Positions 8,354-53,359 are shown, numbered from the stretch's first letter. The stretch: 53,359 nt of DNA from a virus (IMGVR_UViG_3300045988_063706:1-53359), one strand, 5' to 3'. The notes: generated from the letters alone by a model not told the origin. Program-made: numbers and translations.

Positions 8354-8363
8354 AAAGTTTCTC

Positions 8364-11615: not shown

Positions 11616-12416
11616 TTATCTTACAAGGTTAGGAACCTGCTGAGGGATAGGACAGGCCCCGCCGTCACAGTGAGCAGAATGCTTTTCCCTCCACTCATCC
11701 AGACTGCGCTCATACAGGTGCAGGCTCCCGGCGAAATGGGTATAGGTTCCGATATCAACCCCGAGCCGAAATGCAAGCAAAATCTGGAAACAAGTGAATG
11801 AGAAAACATCATACGGGAACCCGGTCCACAGGTCATTGGAGCGCATATAGGTCGTCGCATGGAGTTTTCCGTCCCGGATTAAATACTGGAGCGCAACGGT
11901 GCAAGGGACGTCTTTTGTGGGGAATGTGTTGTAGTCCTCGGCATCCTTGATATGGATAACTGCCTGACGGCTGAGCGGGTTCTTGGTCAGGGCCTCAACC
12001 ACATACTCGAATTGGTCAAACCCGAACCGCTCAAAGATGCGCTGACCGTATGCAGAATTGACAGTCACGCCATCGTCAGACATACGCTCCCAAACCTTGG
12101 AGAATACGCTGATATCCTTGAGCCGGTTAGAGCCGGACAGATACCACAGCAGTTCCCCCACGGCGTACCGCATGGGCATTCTCCGGTCGTCGCTCGTAAC
12201 GATATTTCGGGTCGGGTCATTGATTACCGTGATAGCGTTCAGGCACTCAGCAACGACAGCCCCGTCACGAGAGGGGTCATTCTTACCGGCCTCAGCCTGT
12301 TTGTGGAACATATCGAACCACTCCTGCCACGCCTCATTGACCGTCCTGGTCTCAACCAGAATACCAGTCGGGGTCAGGGTCCCGCCATTCATGGGGATAT
12401 TGCATACGTCACTCAT
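11616..12416 (-). CDS. Thymidylate-synthase-fold pyrimidine C5 transferase. It has Asp at the base-discriminating position, so it is a candidate dCMP hydroxymethylase or methylase.
   Basis: Strong RBS GAAAAGGAGGAAAACGGATATG at 12416. VPCTVALQY (catalytic Cys), YMRSNDLWTGFPYD, SLHLY. The Asp lies 31 residues after the Cys, where E. coli ThyA has Asn177 and T4 gp42 has Asp179. Confidence 0.75.
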   Translation of the reverse strand: MSDVCNIPMNGGTLTPTGILVETRTVNEAWQEWFDMFHKQAEAGKNDPSRDGAVVAECLNAITVINDPTRNIVTSDDRRMPMRYAVGELLWYLSGSNRLKDISVFSKVWERMSDDGVTVNSAYGQRIFERFGFDQFEYVVEALTKNPLSRQAVIHIKDAEDYNTFPTKDVPCTVALQYLIRDGKLHATTYMRSNDLWTGFPYDVFSFTCFQILLAFRLGVDIGTYTHFAGSLHLYERSLDEWREKHSAHCDGGACPIPQQVPNLVR

Positions 12417-12879
12417 ATCCGTTTTCCTCCTTTTCAAGTTTGGTTCCTGCAAAGTTGGCGTCATACCGGATGACCGGCAAAATACTCTCCGCCATTAGTC
12501 CCTCGAAGCGACTGAGCAGTTCCGGGACGGGGATGAGGGTAACTTCACCCCTTGCCGCTAAACGCTCCATGATGAGTCCCTCAGGAGCCGTGACGAGGAT
12601 TACCTTGCCCTCGGCGTCAAGTATGCGAGCCTCAAGCCGGTGCAACTCCTCTTTTGTGATATGCCGCTCCTCTTTCTTTTGGTACACGAACTGACCGTAG
12701 CAGAACCGGTCAGCAATAATGTTCCGGGTCATAGCCGCCGAAATGATACTGTCGAAAAAGTCATAATCGTTCGGGGTTTTGGCGGTGCAATGAACGATAT
12801 CAGCGTTCAGCAGTTTGGAAAGGAACTTTGCAAGTGTAGTCTTGCCAGTTCCGTCACAGCCCTCGAGAACAACCAGCAT
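12409..12879 (-). CDS. Thymidylate-kinase-like dNMP kinase
   Basis: VLEGCDGTGKTT P-loop and the DRFCYGQFVYQ motif (Tmk DR..S..AYQ). 156 aa. Confidence 0.7.
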   Translation of the reverse strand: MLVVLEGCDGTGKTTLAKFLSKLLNADIVHCTAKTPNDYDFFDSIISAAMTRNIIADRFCYGQFVYQKKEERHITKEELHRLEARILDAEGKVILVTAPEGLIMERLAARGEVTLIPVPELLSRFEGLMAESILPVIRYDANFAGTKLEKEENGYE

Positions 12880-13305
12880 TCAATTCACCCCCGTTGAACC
12901 CCATCCGCCTCTGGACTTATCAGGGAGGGTTTCTACCTCTGTGAATTCGACCTCAGGCTGGAGAGGGTAAATCATAAATTGACAGATGCGCTCATTCTTT
13001 TCGATGGTGACGTCCCGTGTAGCATAGGCAAAGAAACCCCATACGTCGTCATTCCCACAGAAAGAATTCTCAAAAACCCCGATGGAGTTTGCTTGCAAAA
13101 GACCTGTCCGCTTGAATGTGCTGGAGCGGGGCGCAAGTATGGCTCCATACCCCTCAGGGAGTTTCATGGACACGCCGAGCGAAATAAGGGCCGATTCTCC
13201 TGCTTTCAGGGTAACACGCTCAGCGGCCCGGAGGTCAATCCAGTCACCGACAGGGGTTTTCTTCGGCAACTCAACATCGGTGTGCCGCTTGATTAAAATG
13301 TTCAT
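12880..13305 (-). CDS. dut: dUTP diphosphatase (trimeric dUTPase)
   Basis: GYGAILAPRSS, GVFENSFCGNDDVWGF and a C-terminal RGGWGSTG. Confidence 0.9.
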   Translation of the reverse strand: MNILIKRHTDVELPKKTPVGDWIDLRAAERVTLKAGESALISLGVSMKLPEGYGAILAPRSSTFKRTGLLQANSIGVFENSFCGNDDVWGFFAYATRDVTIEKNERICQFMIYPLQPEVEFTEVETLPDKSRGGWGSTGVN

Positions 13306-14348
13306 GACTTCCTCCGTTTCTTCTTGCCCTTTTTGGGTAGGTTCAGGTTATCGGCACAGGTGATGCCGGTTTCCTTTTCCCAGTCTCTCGCCCGGAGTAC
13401 AGTGAGCGGCTCGTGCTTCTCCAGAACGATATCGTAGTCCTCCTCAGTGGGTTCCTCCATTTCCTGCTTGCCTAAATGGTCAGGCAACAGGCCCTCCCTC
13501 ATGGGGATATGGTCACACACGTTACAGGGGAAGAAAGTCCGATGGTCATGGAACAGAATGCGCCGAGCGGCCTCATACCGAGGATGCCGCCACATATCGT
13601 CAAAACACTTTACCTCCGGGTCCATGCAGTTGACAACAGGGTATTGACCCCGGAAGTCCTGACAGCACATAGCAACCCATCCATCCCAGCGGAAAGACAT
13701 CTCCCGGAAAATGCGGGAGCATACCCGGTCAGAGTAGTCAGTCCGGGGAGGCATACCAGCCCCACAGTGATTCGTCAGTTTGCGGGAAACACAAATCTCC
13801 TCTTCCTCAATAGCGGGGATGATGAGGAGCCGATGCTTCTTGTACTGCTTCGGAGCATACAGGGGGACACCCTTTTGCATACGGACGAATTCAACATGGG
13901 TTCCAGTCTCTTCCTCGTACTTGTCCAACAGTTCTTGGATTTCATCATCGTCAAACTTGCTGTCCTTGTACTCGTCCAGAGTTACGTCGTTCAACCCGGC
14001 GTCAAACATTTTGCAAATAGCGTTGAGGTCTTTGCGAACCCCATAGCCATTCGTCAAAATCTGGACCCAGTGAGTGGGGAGAACCTTGCGAATGAGTTTA
14101 ATGCACGAATAGAAGTTCGGATGCAGGGCGTTCTCCCCATGCCCCGCAATCAGGATGCGAGGGTTATACCCACTCTCCGCAATCAGTTCGCACTCACGGC
14201 GGAGGACATCCTTGCTGATGAAATGCAGTTTGCGCTCAAACCCGTTAGAACCGCAAAAGAAACAAGAGCGGTTGCAACCCTGAACGAGTTCGATTTGAAC
14301 CGTGTTCGGCTTGTAAAAAGCCGAGTTTCTGTACTTCTTTTTCTTCAT
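13302..14348 (-). CDS. Radical SAM enzyme with a SPASM/twitch-like C-terminal Cys cluster
   Basis: QGCNRSCFFCG (CX3CX2C, nt 14251..14280). C-terminus VCSRIFREMSFRWDGWVAMCCQDF...FFPCNVCDH. Lys-rich tail. Confidence 0.85.
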   Translation of the reverse strand: MKKKKYRNSAFYKPNTVQIELVQGCNRSCFFCGSNGFERKLHFISKDVLRRECELIAESGYNPRILIAGHGENALHPNFYSCIKLIRKVLPTHWVQILTNGYGVRKDLNAICKMFDAGLNDVTLDEYKDSKFDDDEIQELLDKYEEETGTHVEFVRMQKGVPLYAPKQYKKHRLLIIPAIEEEEICVSRKLTNHCGAGMPPRTDYSDRVCSRIFREMSFRWDGWVAMCCQDFRGQYPVVNCMDPEVKCFDDMWRHPRYEAARRILFHDHRTFFPCNVCDHIPMREGLLPDHLGKQEMEEPTEEDYDIVLEKHEPLTVLRARDWEKETGITCADNLNLPKKGKKKRRKS

Positions 14349-14351
14349 CTC

Positions 14352-15311
14352 TTACCACCTTACGATGACCGGCTTGGACTCATGGAGTTTATGGTACTGT
14401 TGCCAGTTGATGTCCCCGAACTTATACTGACCATCAGGGAACTTGAATGTTTCCCTTAGATAATGCCGTATCTCCATCTCCATGAGGCCATCATATTCCA
14501 GTTTGTGGAGATGCCGGTTCTTGTCCGGGTTATGCGGGTCACGAACGACCGAGGCAACTTGGTCGTCAATGTAGTCGTAGCACAGGCACGGAATATTAAA
14601 GCAGTCATAACCATTCTGGAGAACCTCTGCGGCGAACCCGATGTCATCTCCATGGAGGTTGAATGCGTCGGGCATTCTTATCCCCGCTTTCTTGATACCT
14701 TTCATATTCAGTATCTTGGTCTGACGAGGAGTAGGGCCTTTGTCTATCTGATACTTGATATCAGCGAGGTCCGCATGGTTTGAAAACCGCTGTTTCCGTA
14801 TGTTACCGAGCAGGACGCTTGGATGCTCTCTAAAGACCTCTCGTGCTATGCGCCCCGTCAACTGCAAAACTTTTTGAGGAATTAAGGGGTCATCTTCCCA
14901 GTCCTTGACCCCGGTGTGCATACTACATTTTTCTCCTGAACCGTTTCGCCCGGTATAGAGGAACTGGAGATACTTGATGTCATCATCCATATCCATAATG
15001 CAGGGCAAATGGTTTTCAATGGCATAGTCCATTATGAACTGACGTGTACTGCCTACTCCGGAGACTGCGCCCTTGGGAATGGGAACCATGTTCATCCCAC
15101 GTTTGAGGAGTTTGCGGTTTGCCTTTTTATAGGCCGCATACTGTTCCTCCCGCACAACGATGAAGACACGCTCAAGGGCCTCGTCAGTGAACAGAGGCAG
15201 GATTTTCTCGCCAGTAACAAACTCAGGCCGATTATAGGAGGGTATGAATACGAATGGCAGGTCTTTCTCAGTGGTCTCGTTGAGAATGCGCTCCATCTTA
15301 CTGCGCTTCAT
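14352..15311 (-). CDS. GT-A-fold glycosyltransferase-like protein (DXD type), candidate DNA or nucleotide glycosyltransferase
   Basis: RBS AAAAGGAGGCTGACCCATG. FVFIPSYNRP first strand, then CIMDMDDDI about 85 residues later. The family assignment is tentative. Confidence 0.5.
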   Translation of the reverse strand: MKRSKMERILNETTEKDLPFVFIPSYNRPEFVTGEKILPLFTDEALERVFIVVREEQYAAYKKANRKLLKRGMNMVPIPKGAVSGVGSTRQFIMDYAIENHLPCIMDMDDDIKYLQFLYTGRNGSGEKCSMHTGVKDWEDDPLIPQKVLQLTGRIAREVFREHPSVLLGNIRKQRFSNHADLADIKYQIDKGPTPRQTKILNMKGIKKAGIRMPDAFNLHGDDIGFAAEVLQNGYDCFNIPCLCYDYIDDQVASVVRDPHNPDKNRHLHKLEYDGLMEMEIRHYLRETFKFPDGQYKFGDINWQQYHKLHESKPVIVRW

Positions 15312-15368
15312 GGGTCAGCCTCCTTTTCAGAGAGGGAGGGGCTTTTATACCCCTCCCCCGTGGTGGGA

Positions 15369-16085
15369 TTAGTCGTCCTCTTCCCAGTCGTCATCCTCGT
15401 CATCGTCCTCGTCGTCCTCCTCATCGGAAGACTTCTTGGACTTCTTTGCCGGGGCTTTCTTCTTGGCGGGAGGGGCTTTCTTGGACTTGCGCTTGGGGGC
15501 GGGTTCCTCATCCTCATCCTCGTCCTCATCGTCTTCGTCCTCTTCCTCGTCCTCGTCATCATCCTCAGGCTCAGGCTTCTTCTTTGCCGGGGCTTTCTTG
15601 GCGGGAGTCTTCTTGGCGGGGGCTTTCTTCTTGGGGGCCTCCTCCTCTTCCTCCTCGTCATCGGTATCGTCCTCATCCTCATCATCGAGGTCCTCGTCCT
15701 CAACCTTGCCGCCCTTTCCGGCCTTGTAATAGTCGGAAATCTTGGCTCTGGTCTGGCCGTTGTATTCCTCCCAGAAAACCTCGATGTCGCAGACCTTTCC
15801 AATCAGCTTGTCCAGGTCAATCTTGAGTTTGCCGTCGGCTTTCATGCCGATAGCCTGGAGGAATGCCTTGAACTTCCACAGGGCCTTGTCGGCCAGAACG
15901 AACGACTCGAACACGGCGGAACCCTTGTCCTCACCCTTGGTGATTTCGAACTTGAACTGGAGCATATCGTCCCCGCCCTGAGAGGTCTTCTCCAGGATTT
16001 CGGCGACCTTTGCGGTGTGAATGCCCTCGCTCGCCTTGGTGTAACTCTCTACACCAGTAAAGTCCAGTTTCTTAACTCTTGCCAT
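15369..16085 (-). CDS. DUF669-like phage ssDNA-binding protein with a long block-polyampholyte C-terminal tail
   Basis: The N-terminal ~125 aa (GIHTAKVAEILEKTSQGGDDMLQFKFEITKGEDKGSAVFESFVLADKALWKFKAFLQAIG) fit the DUF669 pattern found beside Sak4-like ATPases. The tail alternates poly-D/E blocks with KKAPAKK blocks. Confidence 0.65.
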   Translation of the reverse strand: MARVKKLDFTGVESYTKASEGIHTAKVAEILEKTSQGGDDMLQFKFEITKGEDKGSAVFESFVLADKALWKFKAFLQAIGMKADGKLKIDLDKLIGKVCDIEVFWEEYNGQTRAKISDYYKAGKGGKVEDEDLDDEDEDDTDDEEEEEEAPKKKAPAKKTPAKKAPAKKKPEPEDDDEDEEEDEDDEDEDEDEEPAPKRKSKKAPPAKKKAPAKKSKKSSDEEDDEDDDEDDDWEEDD

Positions 16086-18097: not shown

Positions 18098-18208
18098 TCC
18101 TTACCTCCTTTCTTTGTGGTTTCCTCTCCTCTGCGTTTACACGGGCTTGGAACCGTTGAGCCGTGGCTCAGCCGCATTAGAGGAGCCGGGTTTCCCCGGC
18201 GAGGCGGA

Positions 18209-18682
18209 TTACTCCTCCTCTTCGTACTCCTCGTCATCGTCTTCCTCTTCGTCCTCCTCAGGCTTGGGCTGAGGCTTCTTGGCGGGCTTCTTCTTGCCCT
18301 TGGACTTCTTGGCAGGGCGGGGAGGCTCTTCCTCCTCATCCTCTTCATCCTCGTCTTCCTCGACCTCGGCGGCCTTGGCCTTTGCCTTGGTCTTGGACTT
18401 CTTGTCCTCAGTCTTCTTGGACTTCTTCTTGGAAGTCTTGGCCTGAGCGCCGGAGGGCTCATAGGAGCCGTCATCCTCGGTGATATAGTTTGCGAAACGG
18501 TCCTGCTTCGCCTTGGGCTCAACCTGCTTGCCGGTCTTGCGACTGAACTTCGCCTTTCCGATGCGGGTCTCCAGAGTGACAGTGTTCTTGTCGGCGGCGA
18601 GGACTTCCTTAACGCCGACGGCGATACCCGTGAACATATGCAGAATAACGGTGTCGCCCTTTTTCAGATTAGCCAGACTCAT
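18209..18682 (-). CDS. Hypothetical early protein with a block-polyampholyte C-terminal tail
   Basis: First gene after the promoter at 18758..18786. A folded-looking ~70-aa N-terminus, then K-rich and D/E-rich alternating blocks (KKKSKKTEDKKSKTKAKAKAA / EVEEDEDEEDEEEE / PAKKSKGKKKPAKKPQPKP / EEDEEEDDDEEYEEEE). Confidence 0.65.
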   Translation of the reverse strand: MSLANLKKGDTVILHMFTGIAVGVKEVLAADKNTVTLETRIGKAKFSRKTGKQVEPKAKQDRFANYITEDDGSYEPSGAQAKTSKKKSKKTEDKKSKTKAKAKAAEVEEDEDEEDEEEEPPRPAKKSKGKKKPAKKPQPKPEEDEEEDDDEEYEEEE

Positions 18683-28837: not shown

Positions 28838-28854
28838 GAGTTTTCTTCAAATTT

Positions 28855-33894: not shown

Positions 33895-33908
33895 GGCAAC
33901 AGGGTCTG

Positions 33909-34050
33909 AAAAATTGGCAATTTATTCAACGAAAATCGTCAAAAATTGGCATTTTATTCGCGACTTTCGTCCAAAAATTGACATCTAAATAAGAATAAAT
34001 TTAGAATGAAAATACTGCCAAATTTTTTATTTTCCTATTGTGTGTAAACG
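33909..34050 (+). repeat. Iteron cluster A: three 19-nt boxes at exact 32-bp phasing, plus a shared tail
   Basis: aaaaattggcaatttattc (33909), aaaaattggcattttattc (33941), aaaaattgacatctaaa (33973), followed by attttcctattgtgtgtaaacgga. Confidence 0.85.
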
Positions 34051-34181
34051 GAGGACAGGGATTTATTCCAAAATGCAAAAGTCTCGAACTTTTTGGTAAA
34101 ATTAGGTAATCTGCATAAAATTTTTATAATTATACAGTCCATTACACGGGCTGGACAAAAATTTTGCATGATTTTGACGTG

Positions 34182-34325
34182 AAAAATTGGCAATTTATTC
34201 AGCGAGTTTGGACAAAAATTGGCAATCTATTCTTGGAAAATCGTCAAAAATTGACATCTAAACAAGAATAAATTTAGATAGCCTTTAGATGTCAATATTT
34301 TATATTTCCTATTAGTTATAAATGG
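34182..34325 (+). repeat. Iteron cluster B: a diverged duplicate of cluster A, 273 bp downstream
   Basis: aaaaattggcaatttattc (34182), aaaaattggcaatctattc (34214), aaaaattgacatctaaa (34246), again at 32-bp phasing, followed by atatttcctattagttataaatgga. Confidence 0.85.
34251..34295. repeat. Perfect 12-bp palindrome arms ttgacatctaaa / tttagatgtcaa with a 21-nt spacer
   Basis: Arms at 34251..34262 and 34284..34295. Confidence 0.9.
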
Positions 34326-34403
34326 AATATGTATAAATATATAAATATAAATGAATACATAAAATATATATATAAAAGTAAGGGGCCAAAAAACGGCAAA
34401 AAA

Positions 34404-34448
34404 TTGACATCTAAAGTTAGAAAGGATTTTGAATAAATTAGATGTCAA
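34404..34448. repeat. Second ttgacatctaaa / (a)ttagatgtcaa palindrome
   Basis: Arms at 34404..34415 and 34437..34448 (11 of 12 match). The same 12-mer also occurs at 33978..33989. Confidence 0.85.
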
Positions 34449-34645
34449 TTTTTGCAAATTTTTAAGAATAAAAAACCAAATTTTCGCAGGGTGGACGAGA
34501 ATAAATTGCCAAATTTTTTGGACAAAAAGCCAAATTTTACACGCAAAAAGTCCAAAAGTTCGAGACTTTGGTCGTCACAACCTTTTAGGGCCTGCGCCCT
34601 GGAGCTGTCCTAATCGGACTTGGAACTCGTGTCGTCCCTGGAGCC

Positions 34646-37990: not shown

Positions 37991-38206
37991 TTGCTCCAAC
38001 CTCCTTGCTACGACCCTCGAGCTCGCATTGACTGTCCTCAGAGGTCCGCTTTTTGCCGCCTGTCTTGTGCAAAGTGGCAAGCCTTTGAAAAGGAAAAGGC
38101 CGAATACTATGCAAGGCGGGAAAAGGAATACCTCCAGCGGTCATCAGACTACGAATACCAACGCAAAATCCATGAAAAATTTGAAAGGAGAAAGCACAAG
38201 AAATGA
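37991..38206 (+). CDS. Small Cys-containing, Lys/Glu-rich protein (71 aa)
   Basis: TTG start directly after the terL stop. Overlaps the portal start. Confidence 0.4.
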   Translation: MLQPPCYDPRARIDCPQRSAFCRLSCAKWQAFEKEKAEYYARREKEYLQRSSDYEYQRKIHEKFERRKHKK

Positions 38207-39756
38207 GTAGAGAAGTCGAAACGGTCGTGAATGGCCTCCGTATCCCCTGGAGCATGATTTCCGAAGAACTGGAGGGCCTGTATGGTAGCACACTCCTCGC
38301 CGAATTCAAGGAAATCATCGGGTATTATGACGTCTATGAGAATGGCGCAAAGTTTGTTTCTGAGAGTGCGAAGACCGACTTTACCGGGGCGAACTTACGC
38401 TTCAAGGAATGTCGCAAACTCATAAACAAAGAAGCCCGGTTCCTGTTCTCCAAACATCCGGACTTCTGGGTTCGGGTTCCGTACGACAAGGATTCTGCGG
38501 ACGAGACTGCAAAGGCTACGGCAAAGGCGCAGACCACCATCCTCCAGAACTATGTGGACTCCGTATTCAAGGCGACGGGCCTGTATGCCAAACTCGTCAA
38601 GGCGGCGAAAGACTGCTTCATTGGAAAGCGGGTTGCATACTTTGTCAACTTTGATGAAGTGAATAAGCGCATTATGATTGACTTCATCCCGAGCCTGGAG
38701 TTTGTGTTCGAGACTGACGAGAGCGACACAAGCAAACTCACCAAAATCGTCACATTCTACACCATCAAGGACAGCAAAAGCAAAGTTGACCAGAGGGTTT
38801 ACAAGAAGAAGTATTGGCTCCATGAGGAGACTGACGTATGCTGGCTCAGCGAAGCCATTTATGACGGAACTGGCACTCTCCTTGAGGAGATTACACCTGA
38901 GCGCCCGACGAAGTTTGTGGGCCGCATTCCCGCCGGTGTCATCATCAACGATGGGTTGACCGGCGACATGGACGGTTCCAGCGAAATTGAAGACCTGGAG
39001 AACTCTGAGAGTTGGTTTAGCCGCATTTCCAACGGTGACATTGACTCCGAGCGGTGCGGTATGAACCCTATTCGCTGGGCAAGGGACATGAACCCCAAAA
39101 CTACGAAAGGCCTCTCTATTGCGCCGGGGGCCTTCTGGGACCTTGCCTCCGACCCGAATGCGCCTGATGGGGTCATCGGCGAAGTGGGTATGATGGAAAC
39201 TTCCCTCAACTACACCAACGCCGTCAACTCCACACTGAACCGCATTCGTACCTCCATGTATGACGCCCTCGACGTCCCCGATGTGTCCCCTGATGCCCTG
39301 AAAGGTGTAGTTTCCTCCGGGAAGACTCTAAAGGCTCTGTACTGGGGACTCATTGTCCGCTGTGATGAGAAAATGCTGGCATGGAGACCGGCCCTTGAGA
39401 ACATTGTGAGCCTCGTTGTTGAGGGTGGCAAACTCTATCCGGAGAGTGCAGGGCGATACACGGAGCAACCGCTCCCCGATTCCCCCTATGAAATTGAAGT
39501 GGAGAATCAATATCCTCTGCCGGATGACGAAGCCGATGAGAAGCAGGTTGACCTCGCCGAAGTGAATGCTCAGACGATGAGCAAAATGGCCTATATGAAG
39601 AAATGGCGTGGCCTGACTGACGTGGAAGCCATGCAGGAACTCAAGCAGATTGCCATGGAGCGGGAAATGCTGGAGGACACTTTTGGCTACCAGAACCCGG
39701 CTCAGCAACAGCAGGAGCAAGAACAGCAGGAAGAGGAGGACTTTGACAATGTATGA
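38203..39756 (+). CDS. Portal protein (SPP1 gp6-like)
   Basis: 517 aa immediately after terL. Acidic Gln-rich C-terminus. The overall pattern is that of the SPP1-type portal family. Confidence 0.85.
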   Translation: MSREVETVVNGLRIPWSMISEELEGLYGSTLLAEFKEIIGYYDVYENGAKFVSESAKTDFTGANLRFKECRKLINKEARFLFSKHPDFWVRVPYDKDSADETAKATAKAQTTILQNYVDSVFKATGLYAKLVKAAKDCFIGKRVAYFVNFDEVNKRIMIDFIPSLEFVFETDESDTSKLTKIVTFYTIKDSKSKVDQRVYKKKYWLHEETDVCWLSEAIYDGTGTLLEEITPERPTKFVGRIPAGVIINDGLTGDMDGSSEIEDLENSESWFSRISNGDIDSERCGMNPIRWARDMNPKTTKGLSIAPGAFWDLASDPNAPDGVIGEVGMMETSLNYTNAVNSTLNRIRTSMYDALDVPDVSPDALKGVVSSGKTLKALYWGLIVRCDEKMLAWRPALENIVSLVVEGGKLYPESAGRYTEQPLPDSPYEIEVENQYPLPDDEADEKQVDLAEVNAQTMSKMAYMKKWRGLTDVEAMQELKQIAMEREMLEDTFGYQNPAQQQQEQEQQEEEDFDNV

Positions 39757-39964: not shown

Positions 39965-39999
39965 AAAGCCCCGCCCTTTTTACGGGGCGGGGTTTGTTT
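39965..39999. terminator. Bidirectional rho-independent terminator
   Basis: Stem ccccgccc/gggcgggg, 8-nt loop. T-runs on both strands. Confidence 0.8.
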
Positions 40000-40000
40000 C

Positions 40001-40198
40001 TTATCGCTTCAAAAAGTCATATTCAATATGGAGAACGGGGATTCCGGATTTCTTCATATGGCCTATCTTTGTGACCTTGGAAGCATATACCTCAGGAATC
40101 ATGCCGTCTACTGCAATCGGGTGGAAGATGTGGCCTTGTGTGCCTCTCAGGTAAAACAGTTTGCCGGGGTTCTGAGCCTTGTATTCGTTGACTGTCAT
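40001..40198 (-). CDS. Hypothetical protein (65 aa) in the minus-strand islet
   Basis: RBS taaggaggaaaacaaaATG at 40198. The track ORF was trimmed. Confidence 0.55.
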   Translation of the reverse strand: MTVNEYKAQNPGKLFYLRGTQGHIFHPIAVDGMIPEVYASKVTKIGHMKKSGIPVLHIEYDFLKR

Positions 40199-40211
40199 TT
40201 TGTTTTCCTCC

Positions 40212-40346
40212 TTAAATTTTATACATATCAACATTCCAGGAACCGAAAATCTTTTCCATCTTAGTGGCATAGGCAAGGGCTTCTTCAAATGTAGCGAACT
40301 CCTCACGCTCAACGAAGTCTTCATCAGCGGCTCTAACTACGAACAT
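40212..40346 (-). CDS. Small acidic protein (44 aa) in the minus-strand islet
   Basis: RBS agggaggaaaacaaaATG at 40346. MFVVRAADEDFVEREEFATFEEALAYATKMEKIFGSWNVDMYKI. Confidence 0.5.
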   Translation of the reverse strand: MFVVRAADEDFVEREEFATFEEALAYATKMEKIFGSWNVDMYKI

Positions 40347-40377
40347 TTTGTTTTCCTCCCTGTTTCTTTGTGAGTAT

Positions 40378-40406
40378 AATATAGCACACTCTTTCGAAGA
40401 ATGCAA
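40378..40406 (-). promoter_or_regulatory. Sigma-A-type promoter (conserved family) driving the islet
   Basis: Minus strand reads CCCTTGCAT, 17 nt (ending GTGTGC), TATATT. Confidence 0.65.
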
Positions 40407-40453
40407 GGGCTTTTTGAAAATTTCTCAGAAAAATTTTGAAAGGAGGTTTTCGT

Positions 40454-42250
40454 ATGGCAGAATGGACACTTGCTGACGCTACTCAAATCAGGGCAAACCT
40501 AACGAAAGAGCAGGAAGACGAGATATCCATGCTCTATCGCAAGGTCTATTTGCAGGTGCGAAAGCAAATGCTCGCTATTCCTAAAGACGGAACGACCTCG
40601 CAACAGCTTCAAAGGCAATATCTGGACAAACTGCATAAACAACTCGACGAGGCGTACAAGTCTCTCGGCGTGGGTCTTGAAAAGCAGATTCAAAAGGAGG
40701 CAAAGAAAGCCGCTCAAGGCGTGGTAGAGTCCTCCAAAAAGATGACGAATAAACTCGGGTTCAAGATTGAGGGTGCATACTCATTCGTTCCAAAAGATGT
40801 CATCAACGCTTTAGTGACTGGGCAGGTATATGGAGGAAACTGGAGCCTGAGTGGTGCTATCTGGGCCGACATCGACAAGAAGCAGTCCGACATCAGTAAA
40901 GTTATCGCTGAGGGCCTTGCGGCGAATAAAAGTGCATACGATATCGCAAAAGACTTGGAAACCTACGTTGACCCTAAAGCGAAAAAGGAATGGGACTGGA
41001 GCAAGGTTTATCCGGGCACAAGCAAAAAGGTCGACTACAATGCTCAGCGGCTGGCTCGTACTATGATTTCCCATGCCTACCAACAGAGTCTCGAACGGGT
41101 ATGCAAGAATAATCCATTTGTTGAGGGGTTTATCTGGCAATCCGCACACTCAAGTCGGGTTTGTCCTATCTGCGCCGAGCGGGATGGGCAGTTCTACAAA
41201 AAGGGTGAACTCCCGCTTGACCATCCGAATGGAATGTGTACCTTTATCGCAAGTATTCAAGGCTCTATGAATGATGTCGCTGACCGGCTTGCTGATTGGG
41301 CAAATGGCAAGAGTGACCCCGAACTGGACAAATGGTACGAGGATATGACCGGGGGCAAGGCTACTCCGGTATTCAACGAGGAACAAAAGAAATGGCTGGA
41401 GCCTCTTGGCTACTCGGTGAATAATATGCCTACAAACTTCAAAGAGTTTGCTACTCAGTTATCCTTTGACCAACAGAGCGAGCTCCTTTCCCTTGCCGGT
41501 GGCTCATGGAGCAGTCCTCATCCATATCAGCTCATGGAGAAATACTACAAAGAGCACTTGCTCAGTGTGAGGGCCGGGGTTTCTGCTATACAGAAGCCGA
41601 AAAAGCCTCCTATCGGTATGAGCAAGGAACTCATGGAGGAACTGTTCAGAAAGCAGGATTACTCTGTCATTGGAAAACTTTCCGAAGCGACGAATAAGTG
41701 GTGGAAGTCCTTAACTCAAGAGGAGCGAGATGCGGTTGAGGCCTATACTGGAAGTTCCTACATTGATATGAATAACTTCCTGCGTGGCATTGATAAAAAT
41801 ATCGCAGACTATATGAAGAAGCGAATTCAGGACTGCCGCTCCGCTCTTAACAAGGTAGAAAGCCCCTTTGACATCGTTGTGGGCCGTGGCTCCAGCACAA
41901 GCAGTCTCCGGGGAATGCTTGGAAAGCCTAAAGGCATGAAAACCGCTATTGATGATGGCGAACTTGCAGATTGGGTGAATAAGAACAAGGACTCTTTGAT
42001 TGGCTCTATTGCAAGCGACAAGGGTTTCCTCTCAACGACCCCTGTTGAGGGCGGCGGGTTCTCGGGCGATATCACTTATCGAATTTTTGTGCCTAAAGGC
42101 AGTCATGGAGCCTATGTTGACGAGTACAGTAGACATCAGGGTGAGCGAGAGCTCCTGTTGCAAGCCGATGGAAAGTTTAGAGTGACTGACCTTGTCGCCT
42201 CCTATGGGAATAGGGTTACGGTCTATATGGAGTACATTCCGCAAAAATAA
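40454..42250 (+). CDS. Minor head protein (SPP1 gp7 / Mu F-like) fused to a C-terminal ADP-ribosyltransferase (R-S-E type) domain
   Basis: gp7 core ARTMISHAYQQS...WQSAHSSRVCPICAERDGQFY...LDHPNGMCTF. ART region from about nt 41690: AYTGSSYIDMNNFLRG, VVGRGS (Arg), GFLSTT (STS-like), QGERELLL (ExE). Confidence 0.8.
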   Translation: MAEWTLADATQIRANLTKEQEDEISMLYRKVYLQVRKQMLAIPKDGTTSQQLQRQYLDKLHKQLDEAYKSLGVGLEKQIQKEAKKAAQGVVESSKKMTNKLGFKIEGAYSFVPKDVINALVTGQVYGGNWSLSGAIWADIDKKQSDISKVIAEGLAANKSAYDIAKDLETYVDPKAKKEWDWSKVYPGTSKKVDYNAQRLARTMISHAYQQSLERVCKNNPFVEGFIWQSAHSSRVCPICAERDGQFYKKGELPLDHPNGMCTFIASIQGSMNDVADRLADWANGKSDPELDKWYEDMTGGKATPVFNEEQKKWLEPLGYSVNNMPTNFKEFATQLSFDQQSELLSLAGGSWSSPHPYQLMEKYYKEHLLSVRAGVSAIQKPKKPPIGMSKELMEELFRKQDYSVIGKLSEATNKWWKSLTQEERDAVEAYTGSSYIDMNNFLRGIDKNIADYMKKRIQDCRSALNKVESPFDIVVGRGSSTSSLRGMLGKPKGMKTAIDDGELADWVNKNKDSLIGSIASDKGFLSTTPVEGGGFSGDITYRIFVPKGSHGAYVDEYSRHQGERELLLQADGKFRVTDLVASYGNRVTVYMEYIPQK

Positions 42251-42253
42251 CTC

Positions 42254-42282
42254 TTGCATTCTGTTTCTTTCTATGGTATAAT
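42254..42282 (+). promoter_or_regulatory. Sigma-A-type promoter (conserved early-type family) inside the structural module
   Basis: CTCTTGCAT, 17 nt (ending CTATGG), TATAAT. Confidence 0.7.
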
Positions 42283-42306
42283 GCAAGTGGAAAGGAGTGA
42301 GACTAT

Positions 42307-42492
42307 ATGTCAAGCAAATTCGAATGGACAGAAGAGACGGCTCCGAAGCCGGTACGCATGGAAGACCTCGTCTGTAAAGACTGCTTCCATAGGAGCGGAC
42401 GAACTGACATCTGTGCTGAGTATCAGGAACTAAAGCCTTTCTCAGTGCTGGATGGTGGTTCTTGTCCACACTACAAAAAGGAGAAGAAATGA
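42307..42492 (+). CDS. Small zinc-ribbon protein (61 aa)
   Basis: RBS gaaaggagtgagactatATG. CKDCFH...ICAEY...SCPHY. Confidence 0.55.
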   Translation: MSSKFEWTEETAPKPVRMEDLVCKDCFHRSGRTDICAEYQELKPFSVLDGGSCPHYKKEKK

Positions 42493-43316
42493 TAAAGAAC
42501 AAGGACAAAATTCTCGGTTCCCTGATTGGGTTTGCTATTGGCGACGCTATGGGTGCAACGACCGAGTTCATGAGCAAGGAGCAAATTCAAAAGCAATACG
42601 GAAAAGTCGACCATATCATGGGCGGCGGTTGGTTAAATCTGCGCCCCGGCTCCGTCACTGATGATACGCAAATGTCCCTCGTAGTTTATAGGGCTATGCG
42701 GGACACGGCTGGTCATCCTGAGCGGACGCTCGAGACGATGTGCGCCGGGTTTAGGGCGTGGGCGGACAGCAACCCGCCTGACATTGGTGGGGCCTGTCGA
42801 CGGGCGATTTACGGAACAAAGTCGCTGAAACCCCGTGCGTGGATATGGCATAACAAGCGGCGACAGGAGGCAACCAAACACAAGGACCTCGGCAACGGTG
42901 GCCTCATGCGCTGTCTTGTGCCTCTGCTGGCGGGTGACTTACGACTGGCAAAGGCTCAGTCTTATCTCACGCATTCCGTTGACACTCACGACACCTATAT
43001 CGAACTCTACTACGAAGCCCTCCAGGATGCCTTTCTTGGGCTGAGGCCTGTATATCCGAAGCACATGGAGCCGACGGGTCATGTCATCAATACTGAGCGA
43101 AATGCTGAATATTGGTGTTATGCTACGACTTCATTCGAGGAGGCTATTATTGGGGCCGTAAATGATGGGGGCGACGCTGATACCATAGCCGCTCTCACTG
43201 GAGGCCTTGCCGGTGCTCTGTATGGGTTTGAGGCAATTCCATTTGAGTGGGTAAATGCCCTCGAACCAGAGGTCGCCGATGAACTTTGTGACTGTGCAGA
43301 CTGGCTCATAAAATGA
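42489..43316 (+). CDS. ADP-ribosylglycohydrolase (ARH/DraG family)
   Basis: GSLIGFAIGDAMGATTEF, SVTDDTQMSL, and the C-terminal GGDADTIAALTGGLAGALYG. Confidence 0.9.
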   Translation: MIKNKDKILGSLIGFAIGDAMGATTEFMSKEQIQKQYGKVDHIMGGGWLNLRPGSVTDDTQMSLVVYRAMRDTAGHPERTLETMCAGFRAWADSNPPDIGGACRRAIYGTKSLKPRAWIWHNKRRQEATKHKDLGNGGLMRCLVPLLAGDLRLAKAQSYLTHSVDTHDTYIELYYEALQDAFLGLRPVYPKHMEPTGHVINTERNAEYWCYATTSFEEAIIGAVNDGGDADTIAALTGGLAGALYGFEAIPFEWVNALEPEVADELCDCADWLIK

Positions 43317-43333
43317 CAACTTAAAAATCGCTG

Positions 43334-43370
43334 AAAGCCCTGAGCCGCAACGGTTCGGGGCTTTACCTTT
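43334..43370 (+). terminator. Rho-independent terminator
   Basis: 14-bp stem aaagccctgagccg/cggttcggggcttt (two G-U pairs), 3-nt loop, then accttttat. Confidence 0.65.
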
Positions 43371-43387
43371 TATGGTAAACAACTACC

Positions 43388-43416
43388 TTGTCAAAGTTCA
43401 GAGTTCGATGTATAAT
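43388..43416 (+). promoter_or_regulatory. Promoter ahead of the head genes
   Basis: TTGTCA, 17 nt, TATAAT. Confidence 0.6.
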
Positions 43417-43496
43417 TCAAATAGGTGTTTACCGGAGTTCAGTAAAACCGGATTAAAGTGACCGGGCATTCATCCCGGAGAAAAGGAGAAAACACT

Positions 43497-52348: not shown

Positions 52349-53359
52349 ATGGCTGTCAACGAATTACTGTATAATAGTAAAACCTTTGAACGGCTTAGAA
52401 AAGCCTCTTGCAATCTAAGCGAGTCCCTTTCTTTGAGTGCATTACCCATAGATACTCTGAGTGCAACTGTGGTAGAAGAAACAGACGTTGCAGATTTGAA
52501 AGAATATGAGTACGGTTCAATCGTTCAATACAAGCATAACAATATTCTCATCGGGAAATTTTATCTGGAAAAGATTGAACAGACTGGAAAATGGGATTGG
52601 ACATTTTCCTGTATATCTCCTATTGGTCTTCTTGAAAAAGACAACCATTGGGGAGGAATTTATACTGGTCAAACTGCTGAAGAGGTTCTTGCTGATGTCA
52701 TTGGTGGGGTTATACCTTACACTATTGATGATGGGTTAAAAACCGTTCTTGTATATGGTTGGTTGCCAAAAGGTACTCGAAGGGATAACCTGAGAAATGT
52801 TCTTTTTGCTATCAATGCAAGAGTTATTAAAAATGATGCAGGGGATTGTCATTTTGTTGCTCTTTCTGAGGGAGAACCTTATGAACTCCCTATCAGTAAA
52901 TTCTATTTAACGGGTGGGAGTGTTACTAAAGGCTCCCCCGCTACTCAAGCACAAATTACAGAGCACTCTTACTATCAATCCCCCGGAGCAACTACTGAGA
53001 CAATTTTTGAGGGTGTTGCAACTGGTTCAAGTTTTATAACTCCTAAAGGAACAAGTATCTCGCAAGCAACTCTTCTTGAATGGGATAAACCATACTATGA
53101 CTATCAGGTTACAGGCTCAACTATCTTAGAGTCTGGAGTGAACTACGTTGTAGTCTCTCAATCTGCTAACTGTACTATAACAGCGAAAGCCTATGCACAC
53201 TCTGAACGAGTTTTGTTTCGAAATGGTGAGGAGAACGAGTCTCCTAATGTCGTAAATTCAAATGCTTGTCACCTTGTAAATTTAACAAATTCAGAACTCG
53301 TTGTAGACCGAGTCATTGCATTTTACGGTCATGCGAAAAAGACGGTGGTTGATATAATT
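52349..53359 (+). CDS. N-terminal part of the tail fibre / tip protein. The ORF has no stop in the window and continues at base 1 (about 736 aa joined).
   Basis: RBS gaaaggaggttatcATG at 52349. Not in the ORF track because it has no stop. In frame with 1..1255 through the 55-bp overlap (…LVVDRVIAFYGHAKKTVVDII…). Confidence 0.8.
   Translation, partial: MAVNELLYNSKTFERLRKASCNLSESLSLSALPIDTLSATVVEETDVADLKEYEYGSIVQYKHNNILIGKFYLEKIEQTGKWDWTFSCISPIGLLEKDNHWGGIYTGQTAEEVLADVIGGVIPYTIDDGLKTVLVYGWLPKGTRRDNLRNVLFAINARVIKNDAGDCHFVALSEGEPYELPISKFYLTGGSVTKGSPATQAQITEHSYYQSPGATTETIFEGVATGSSFITPKGTSISQATLLEWDKPYYDYQVTGSTILESGVNYVVVSQSANCTITAKAYAHSERVLFRNGEENESPNVVNSNACHLVNLTNSELVVDRVIAFYGHAKKTVVDII
53305..53359. 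repeat. 55-bp terminal direct repeat (copy of 1..55)
   Basis: Exact identity with bases 1-55. Confidence 0.95.

Follow-up and report, generated by a model that had tools for sequence, protein, structure and literature searches.

A MuF–ADP-Ribosyltransferase Gene and Two Putative Neutraliser Genes Form a Swappable Cassette in the Head Module of a Clostridia Siphophage

Results

Genes and signals at the MuF locus

We analyzed the viral DNA stretch IMGVR_UViG_3300045988_063706 (53,359 nucleotides (nt); hereafter the window, with positions counted from its first nucleotide). The subject of the analysis is a gene for a MuF/gp7-like head protein with a C-terminal ADP-ribosyltransferase (ART) domain, followed by genes for a 61-amino-acid (aa) zinc-ribbon-like (Zn-ribbon) protein and a predicted ADP-ribosylhydrolase (ARH). 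The genes and signals at the locus are as follows.

40454..42250, + strand: MuF/gp7-ART gene, 598 aa from an ATG behind the ribosome-binding site GAAAGGAGG; the mechanical open reading frame (ORF) starts at TTG 40436
40454..41335, + strand: MuF/SPP1-gp7-like N-terminal domain (residues 1–294), the backbone common to relatives with other C-termini
41336..41683, + strand: linker (residues 295–410), helical in the AlphaFold2 (AF2) model; left end of the variable cassette, at the homology break of 41310–41336
41684..42250, + strand: R-S-E ART domain (residues 411–598), with R478 at 41885..41887, S527-T528 at 42032..42037, and E564-R565-E566 at 42143..42151
~41336..43320, + strand: swappable cassette, putatively toxin-immunity, comprising linker, ART, promoter, Zn-ribbon gene, and ARH (MuF residues ~295–598 onward)
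42254..42282, + strand: σA-type promoter with extended −10 (TTGCAT-17-TGgTATAAT), starting at the fourth base after the MuF stop, upstream of the Zn-ribbon gene and ARH
42307..42492, + strand: 61-aa four-Cys Zn-ribbon-like protein (C23, C26, C36, C53; CxxC...C...CxH)
42489..43316, + strand: predicted DraG-like ADP-ribosyl(arginine) hydrolase, 275 aa, from an ATG with an AGGAG site
43334..43364, + strand: intrinsic terminator at the right boundary of the cassette, 14-base-pair (bp) stem with 8 G-C pairs (−24.3 kcal/mol, z = −4.7)
43388..43416, + strand: near-consensus σA-type promoter (TTGTCA-17-TATAAT, 11/12 consensus matches), which restarts transcription into the scaffold and capsid genes

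A first-pass annotation, made from the sequence alone, had delimited the unit as 40454–43316. The ORFs and peptide motifs that it had claimed were all present, and E564-R565-E566 fell exactly at 42143..42151.

The head protein carries an R-S-E ADP-ribosyltransferase domain

The N-terminal region of the MuF protein matched phrog_1657 (head morphogenesis, 4.4e-63) and phrog_21401 (8.7e-59), and Foldseek matched the MuF-ART protein to phage entries named 'minor capsid protein' and 'MuF-like fusion protein'. Residues 411–582 matched PF03496 (ADPrib_exo_Tox, 6.6e-29), and the motifs YTGSSYIDMNNFLRG, VVGRGS (R), FLSTT (S-T-T), and ERE were found in the domain. These matches agree with the C-terminal R-S-E ART that had been claimed for the gp7/Mu F-like protein. 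The best sequence match in the PDB was Lmo0066 (8za7_B, 1.2e-20), from an entry titled 'ART-ARH type toxin effector-immunity protein pair'; it was followed by VIP2 (1qs2, 2.8e-13), C3larvin, Plx2A, Certhrax, CDTa, and C3. In the literature, Lmo0066 was found in genome-survey mentions only. PHROG matches of the ART to Alt-like families were weak.

R478, S527-T528, and E564-x-E566 aligned with the R, STS, and EKE motifs of VIP2, and R478, S527, E564, and E566 were invariant across 46 homologues, down to 43% identity. The AF2 model had a predicted local distance difference test (pLDDT) score of ~90 over the ART domain and a low-confidence stretch at residues 377–386 of the linker. The fold comparison of the predicted structure, which the first-pass annotation had proposed, gave 8za7_B as the best Foldseek match (E 8.6e-15, template modelling (TM) score 0.81), followed by VIP2, Plx2A, and C3; the TM scores to 8za7_B, Plx2A, and C3 were 0.7–0.8. 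The domain therefore looks like a competent VIP2/C3-type R-S-E ADP-ribosyltransferase. The possibility of an inactive or purely structural domain was rejected because the catalytic residues are invariant in the 46 homologues. Arginine-modifying ARTs typically have the motif E-x-E (PMC8120803), which predicts arginine as the acceptor of the window ART.

These matches also bear on where the ART would act. One explanation is that it acts mainly outside bacteria: the protein would be freed by lysis in the gut and modify proteins of the animal host, and the downstream genes would only stop self-intoxication of the producer. Apart from Lmo0066, the closest structures are the eukaryote-targeting VIP2, C3, CDTa, iota, and Plx2A, the relatives come from gut Clostridia metagenome-assembled genomes, and for the MuF-ART Bxa both effects on epithelial cells and immunity proteins in bacteria are reported (PMC11699363). 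However, the protein has no secretion or cell-entry domain, its best match belongs to a bacterial effector-immunity pair (8za7), and the upkeep of two neutraliser genes argues for modified bacterial proteins. We regard a mainly extra-bacterial action as highly improbable.

Compared with the related locus L005, the ART was 76% identical, and the MuF N-domain, the Zn-ribbon protein, and the ARH were 96, 93, and 98.5% identical, respectively. The low value of the ART amid near-identical neighbours points to fast evolution or partial recombination inside the toxin domain.

A cassette replaced between conserved flanks

We compared the window with L002, L004, L038, and L039 using blastn. The flanks were 83–97% identical (83–94% in the left flank, which is the MuF N-terminal region); the homology stopped at 41310–41336 and resumed at 43321–43358, with none between. 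The contents between the flanks were as follows.

Window: ART as MuF C-terminus; downstream promoter, Zn-ribbon gene, and ARH
L002: diverged ART; downstream 75-aa homologue of the 61-aa protein, no ARH
L004: unknown MuF C-terminus; no downstream genes
L038: unknown MuF C-terminus; downstream 37-aa ORF
L039: unknown MuF C-terminus; downstream 50-aa ORF

The alternative C-termini of L004, L038, and L039 had no PHROG match, and those of L004 and L039 had no significant PDB match. The protein database gave a similar picture: it held many full-length MuF-ART homologues, together with proteins in which the first ~300 residues were 84–97% identical and the C-termini were diverged ARTs or unknown (P0025, P0040, P0049, and P0075). 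Replacement of this kind is the pattern that defines polymorphic toxin systems. The parts of the unit given as 40454–43316 are where they had been placed, but the functional unit begins inside the MuF gene, at the homology break of ~41336, and not at 40454.

The hydrolase and the Zn-ribbon protein accompany ART-type MuF genes

The gene downstream of the Zn-ribbon gene encodes a member of PF03747 (ADP_ribosyl_GH, 5.7e-44) with the motifs GDAMGATTEF, TDDTQM, and GGDADTIAALTGGLAGALYG. Its closest PDB match was DraG (2woc, 3.3e-41), and Tri1 (6dre_A) and Lmo0067 (8za7_A) were also matched. The counterparts of DraG E28, T59/D60/D61, D97 (the residue mutated in 2woe), and D243/D245/T246, which comprise the binuclear metal and catalytic residues, were all conserved in the alignment to 2woc, so that the ARH looks competent as an enzyme. 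The scores were below the equivalog cut-offs of DraG (TIGR02662, 3.1e-55, 187 bits vs 337) and Tri1 (NF041672, 1.6e-29, 103 bits vs 490), which indicates that the ARH is related to DraG and Tri1 without being orthologous to either. The start of the ARH gene overlaps the stop of the 61-aa gene as ATGA, an arrangement of translational coupling.

The 61-aa protein had no match in Pfam, PHROG, or NCBIfam. It belongs to a family for which 49 clusters (90% identity) and 309 representatives (50% identity) were found, and in which C23, C26, and C36 are invariant, C53 is conserved in at least 90%, and G-N-T-S and K-P motifs recur. P0191 is a clean in-frame natural fusion of the Zn-ribbon protein to an ARH that is very like that of the window. 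The zinc-ribbon protein and the ARH/DraG-family gene described in the first-pass annotation were thus both recovered.

Eight ART-type MuF loci could be evaluated (window, L002, L005, L006, L007, L009, L012, and L040). A Zn-ribbon homologue, detected with a hidden Markov model, lay directly downstream of all eight ART-type MuF genes and of none of the 27 non-ART MuF genes (Fisher, 4e-8); the ARH was present at 5/8 ART-type loci vs 0/27 others (p = 1.7e-4). The Zn-ribbon protein is therefore no mere passenger; it is a constant partner of the ART, more constant than the ARH, and may neutralise the ART by a non-enzymatic route or serve the ARH as a cofactor. In regards to the ARH, its occurrence beside ART-type MuF genes only, and its position inside the same swappable cassette, support a predicted role as the cognate eraser of the window ART, not as a general counter-defence enzyme. 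The co-occurrence counts and the shared cassette boundaries also led us to reject the ARH as a chance neighbour of the ART. The near-isogenic cassette replacements are a stronger argument than the co-occurrence p-values.

The first-pass annotation had offered, as an alternative, that the eraser counteracts ADP-ribosylating defences of the host. In its broader form, the hydrolase, with or without the Zn-ribbon protein, would serve counter-defence by erasing ADP-ribosylation by host ARTs or by ARTs of competitor phages, with the MuF-ART as a chance neighbour. A general action on ADP-ribose adducts of macromolecules has been suggested for ADP-ribosylglycohydrolases of phages (PMC9503650). A Zn-ribbon and ARH pair also lies among small ORFs away from the head module in L044, another 54-kb phage contig, and the orphan Zn-ribbon genes of L041–L043, with their own promoters beside a tRNA-Arg gene, would fit protection against incoming ARTs. 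However, among the MuF loci examined, the ARH and Zn-ribbon genes were found only where the MuF C-terminus is an ART, and relatives whose flanks are as much as 97% identical have lost both genes together with the ART. The predicted chemistries also match: an E-x-E ART would act on arginine, and a DraG-type hydrolase on arginine-ADP-ribose. Given the 5/8 vs 0/27 distribution and the common cassette, counter-defence is an improbable role for these genes, and the alternative was set aside.

The orphan Zn-ribbon homologue of L041–L043 (3754–4210) is located at a prophage end, beside tRNA-Arg(ACG) and lysis genes, with a duplicated promoter-like repeat GATAGTTCTTGGTATGGTATAAT (TGgTATAAT) upstream; neither ART nor ARH was found within 4 kb of it. 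Such promoter-bearing orphan copies might serve lysogens as protection from phages that carry ARTs.

Transcription of the putative neutraliser genes

The pattern TTGCAT-N17-TATAAT had 16 matches in the window vs 2.9 expected, and 0/100 shuffles reached 16. The promoter at 42254..42282 thus belongs, as had been claimed, to a recurring family (TTGCATTCT, 17-nt spacer, TGn, TAnnAT). Its −35 block CTTGCATTCT recurs exactly at 8363+, 28838−, 32744−, 40407−, and 42253+, and a 43-nt conserved block is common to 28839−, 32745−, and 40408−. Members of this family also lie at the start of leftward units, namely the operons at 28838 and 32744 and a small cassette at 40407.

A σA-type extended −10 promoter was found upstream of the Zn-ribbon gene in 6/8 ART loci (window, L005, L006, L007, L009, and L012), with −35 boxes of TTTACA, TGTACA, or TTGACA in the relatives; no own promoter of the small gene was found in L002 and L040. 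The promoter keeps its position despite divergence in sequence, and separate transcription of the putative neutraliser genes is therefore a conserved trait, seen in these six loci. The terminator that had been reported to close the unit was recovered (z = −4.7), and its hairpin is conserved in L002, L005, and L006. No + strand terminator was found between the MuF stop and the Zn-ribbon gene, and late MuF transcripts are therefore expected to read through to 43334. For the MuF gene itself, the σA-type promoter is only weak (TTTCCT-17-TATAAT) and lies back-to-back with the leftward promoter at 40406.

These features bear on a strictly temporal explanation, in which the ART is made late and acts only after injection, and an early eraser ends the modification at a set time. 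The promoter at 42254 has the −35 block, spacing, and TGn of the promoters heading the leftward replication/early operons at 28838− and 32744−, and a promoter is kept at this position in most of the loci. On the other hand, the open path from toxin to eraser genes implies late expression of the eraser as well, a separate promoter is missing from two loci, and σA-type promoters also precede terS (34757, near-consensus) and the scaffold gene, so that the promoter type is no mark of an early gene. The 'early-type' label also did not extend to the relatives, whose promoters are of a generic TTTACA/TTGACA type. For the same reasons, the separation in timing that the first-pass annotation had seen between writer and eraser was not upheld, and we consider the strictly temporal explanation doubtful. 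The idea is plausible in a weaker form only, in which the eraser is expressed independently as well as with the toxin. Expression of the eraser genes by both routes is what would be expected from the signals found, and it fits the need of an immunity function.

The promoter at 43388..43416 is conserved in L002, L004, L005, and L006. The leader between it and the scaffold start codon (43417–43496) is conserved and has two hairpins, ACCGGAG...CCGG and GACCGGGCATTCATCCCGG; it is nearly identical in L002, L004, and L005 and matches no Rfam family.

Genome context

The source stretch is a complete circular assembly with an exact 55-nt terminal direct repeat (1–55 and 53305–53359), which gives a genome of ~53,304 bp. 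The source phage is a complete ~53.3-kb siphophage of gut Clostridia, and the cassette lies in its head-morphogenesis module. The genes found include PolA, primase, helicase, exonuclease, Sak4, a thymidylate-synthase-like gene, a glycosyltransferase, a radical-SAM protein, an endolysin, and an SPP1-like head module. A scan of the large ORFs of the window detected neither an integrase nor a recombinase. The order of the head module is as follows.

36662: terminase
38203..39756: portal
40454: MuF, in the packaging/head module after the portal gene
43497: scaffold
~44583: capsid protein

The relatives of the MuF protein come from gut Clostridia/Oscillospiraceae metagenome-assembled genomes, often on contigs of ~50 kb. 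No close DNA relative of the window was found among GenBank phages. A scan of IMG/VR gave no relatives with the MuF-ART and one unrelated giant-virus contig with the ARH, and an Rfam scan of the whole window gave no match.

Between the portal and MuF genes, on the − strand (39966–40407), lies a second autonomous mini-cassette, kept in relatives with or without ART. It consists of a promoter of the TTGCATTCT family at 40406(−), small ORFs at ~40346..40212 and 40198..40001, and a bidirectional terminator at 39966..39995. In L002 (1550–4285), a 911-aa Peptidase_M14/collagen-like gene that is not in the window follows right after the portal gene. Upstream of the packaging genes, 33900–34560 is AT-rich and non-coding, with direct repeats AAAAATTGGCAATTTATTC at 32-nt spacing and inverted TTGACATCTAAA / TTTAGATGTCAA pairs; its core motif occurs 14 times vs 2.9 expected, and the region looks like an iteron/origin, pac, or regulatory region. 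In the replication region, a thymidylate-synthase-like gene, a radical-SAM/SPASM protein, and a glycosyltransferase are grouped at 11616–15311 (−), which suggests hypermodification of the phage DNA. GAx/acidic codon repeat runs at 15351–15707 and 18200–18382 of the same region correspond to highly acidic minus-strand proteins.

Discussion

Proposed function of the cassette

Taken together, the locus is probably a MuF polymorphic toxin cassette in which a capsid-delivered arginine ART is accompanied by two genes for its cognate neutralisers. Capsid targeting would be the task of the MuF/gp7 domain (residues 1 to ~294), which, by homology to SPP1 gp7, would place the protein at the portal inside the head. 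A few MuF-ART copies per virion would be ejected with the DNA into the next host and would mono-ADP-ribosylate host proteins; we infer this delivery from the SPP1 gp7 homology and from published hypotheses. The two downstream genes would neutralise the window ART. The DraG-like hydrolase is predicted to strip ADP-ribose from arginine, and the Zn-ribbon protein may block the ART directly, as Bsi does with Bxa and the N-terminal plug of Tri1 with Tre1, or may work with the hydrolase. Both genes would be transcribed from their own σA-type promoter and, because no terminator intervenes, by read-through from the toxin gene. A neutraliser would thus be present whenever the toxin is made, protecting the producing cell, and would also be made soon after injection, limiting the delivered dose. 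The linker, ART, promoter, Zn-ribbon gene, and ARH would move as one recombination cassette between the conserved flanks.

Several observations weigh against this interpretation. The loci counted for co-occurrence belong to related phages and do not represent independent events, so that the p-values overstate independence. The MuF domain is below the cut-offs of PF04233 Phage_Mu_F (gathering score; 7.5e-5) and TIGR01641 SPP1 gp7 (3.3e-8). The divergence between the window and L005 (ART 76%, Zn-ribbon 93%, ARH 98.5%) is not a pattern of tight co-evolution. The AF2 model of the 61-aa protein is too poor (pLDDT 58) to be used in a fold search. The Zn-ribbon domain is also fused to the unrelated DUF1643 and DUF6508 and to a GIY-YIG-like region, and it may therefore be a general adaptor instead of a dedicated inhibitor. 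Finally, of the two small ORFs that lie beside the Bxa gene, one gave no neutralisation of the toxin (PMC11699363).

As a tentative extension of the toxin cassette model, the Zn-ribbon family could be a group of undescribed ART-specific neutralisers, acting as a trans-acting equivalent of the Tri1 plug or as a hydrolase-targeting subunit, and an integrase-less, probably virulent phage could thereby gain a self-limited pulse of arginine ADP-ribosylation early in infection. A reading of the cassette as a prophage moron expressed in lysogens was not adopted for the window because no integrase was found; it may still apply to the orphans of L041–L043.

The window adds a clearly delimited Clostridia-phage example to the MuF toxin/immunity systems and leaves current concepts unchanged. 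To our knowledge, only Apk2 and Bxa have been tested so far among these systems. With its precisely placed recombination boundaries, a promoter and terminator of its own, and naturally occurring allelic replacements, the locus is a convenient model for the effects of a capsid-delivered ART on the host. The Zn-ribbon partner could represent a new kind of small protein that inhibits enzymes of ADP-ribosylation or serves them as a cofactor, and the interest of the system would be higher if it is indeed a new ART inhibitor or hydrolase cofactor.

Comparison with known systems

The combination of a MuF toxin with enzymatic immunity is already known; it was predicted in 2012 and 2017 and was shown experimentally for Bxa/BAH/Bsi in 2024. 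The enzymatic immunity Imm-ARG was described as strictly associated with R-S-E toxin ARTs, and MuF as a packaging (capsid) route for toxins (PMC3482391, Zhang et al. 2012). In the survey of the MuF toxin family, ARTs accounted for 14% of the members, DNA-coupled delivery was hypothesised, and the toxins were found only in temperate phages and prophages (PMC5576092, Jamet et al. 2017). A survey of viral NAD+/ADP-ribose enzymes reported many Alt/VIP2 ARTs fused to MuF (PMC9503650). Annotated MuF proteins of the ART type were located by tblastn in phages that infect Pseudomonas, Xanthomonas, Stenotrophomonas, Microbacterium, and other hosts, and Foldseek against viral models found many 'MuF-like fusion' ARTs. 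The arrangement, which the first-pass annotation had considered remarkable, is therefore the published layout of MuF toxin/immunity loci (PMC3482391, PMC5576092, PMC11699363).

The window shares with this family (PMC5576092, PMC3482391) the MuF N-terminus, the variable C-terminal toxin, and the small downstream ORF. It differs in that the temperate association of 2017 does not extend to it: the genome has no recognisable integrase and has its own PolA, primase, and helicase. Encoding by temperate phages or prophages is an association from that survey and not a structural criterion. For this lineage, the present analysis defines the cassette boundaries, the promoter and terminator of the cassette, and the Zn-ribbon partner. 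In the literature compared, neither the family of the Zn-ribbon partner nor the detailed structure of the cassette in these Clostridia phages is described. The partner family is modestly new, as is the absence of a recognisable integrase in a MuF-toxin phage.

T4 Alt is likewise an R-S-E arginine-specific ART in a phage head, active at the very start of infection (PMC8120803). In contrast to the window protein, Alt has no MuF fusion, the homology of the window ART to Alt is limited to residues 410–470, and no phage-encoded eraser of the Alt modification was met in the literature compared.

The MuF-ART Bxa of the Bacteroides stercoris prophage ΦBxa is neutralised by the adjacent ARH BAH and the small binder Bsi (PMC11699363). 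Both loci have an adjacent ADP-ribosylhydrolase, which in the Bxa locus reverses the modification, and small ORFs next to the toxin gene; the one for Bsi in the Bxa locus encodes a protein that blocks the toxin by binding to it. In both, homologous MuF N-termini bear other toxin domains in relatives. The two systems differ in host and size (Bacteroides and ~869 aa for Bxa, Clostridia and 598 aa for the window protein) and in the hydrolase, BAH having been compared with human ARH1 and that of the window being DraG-like. ΦBxa is a prophage, whereas the window phage has no recognisable integrase. The small partner in the window is a 61-aa four-Cys protein; PMC11699363 contains no mention of zinc and mentions cysteine in its proteomics methods only.

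The closest counterparts of the two enzymes are Tre1/Tri1 (Serratia type VI secretion system; 6dre/6drh) and Lmo0066/Lmo0067 (8za7), in which an R-S-E ART is also paired with a DraG-like hydrolase as immunity. Both pairs were matched by sequence, and Lmo0066 was the best structural match of the window ART. Their delivery is by a secretion system, and that of the window ART would be by the capsid. Tri1 confers immunity by a dual mechanism (PMC8120803), with an N-terminal extension that plugs the toxin. The window ARH starts at position 66 of the Tri1 profile and therefore has no such extension; the Zn-ribbon gene sits where the extension would be, and in P0191 it is fused to the ARH.

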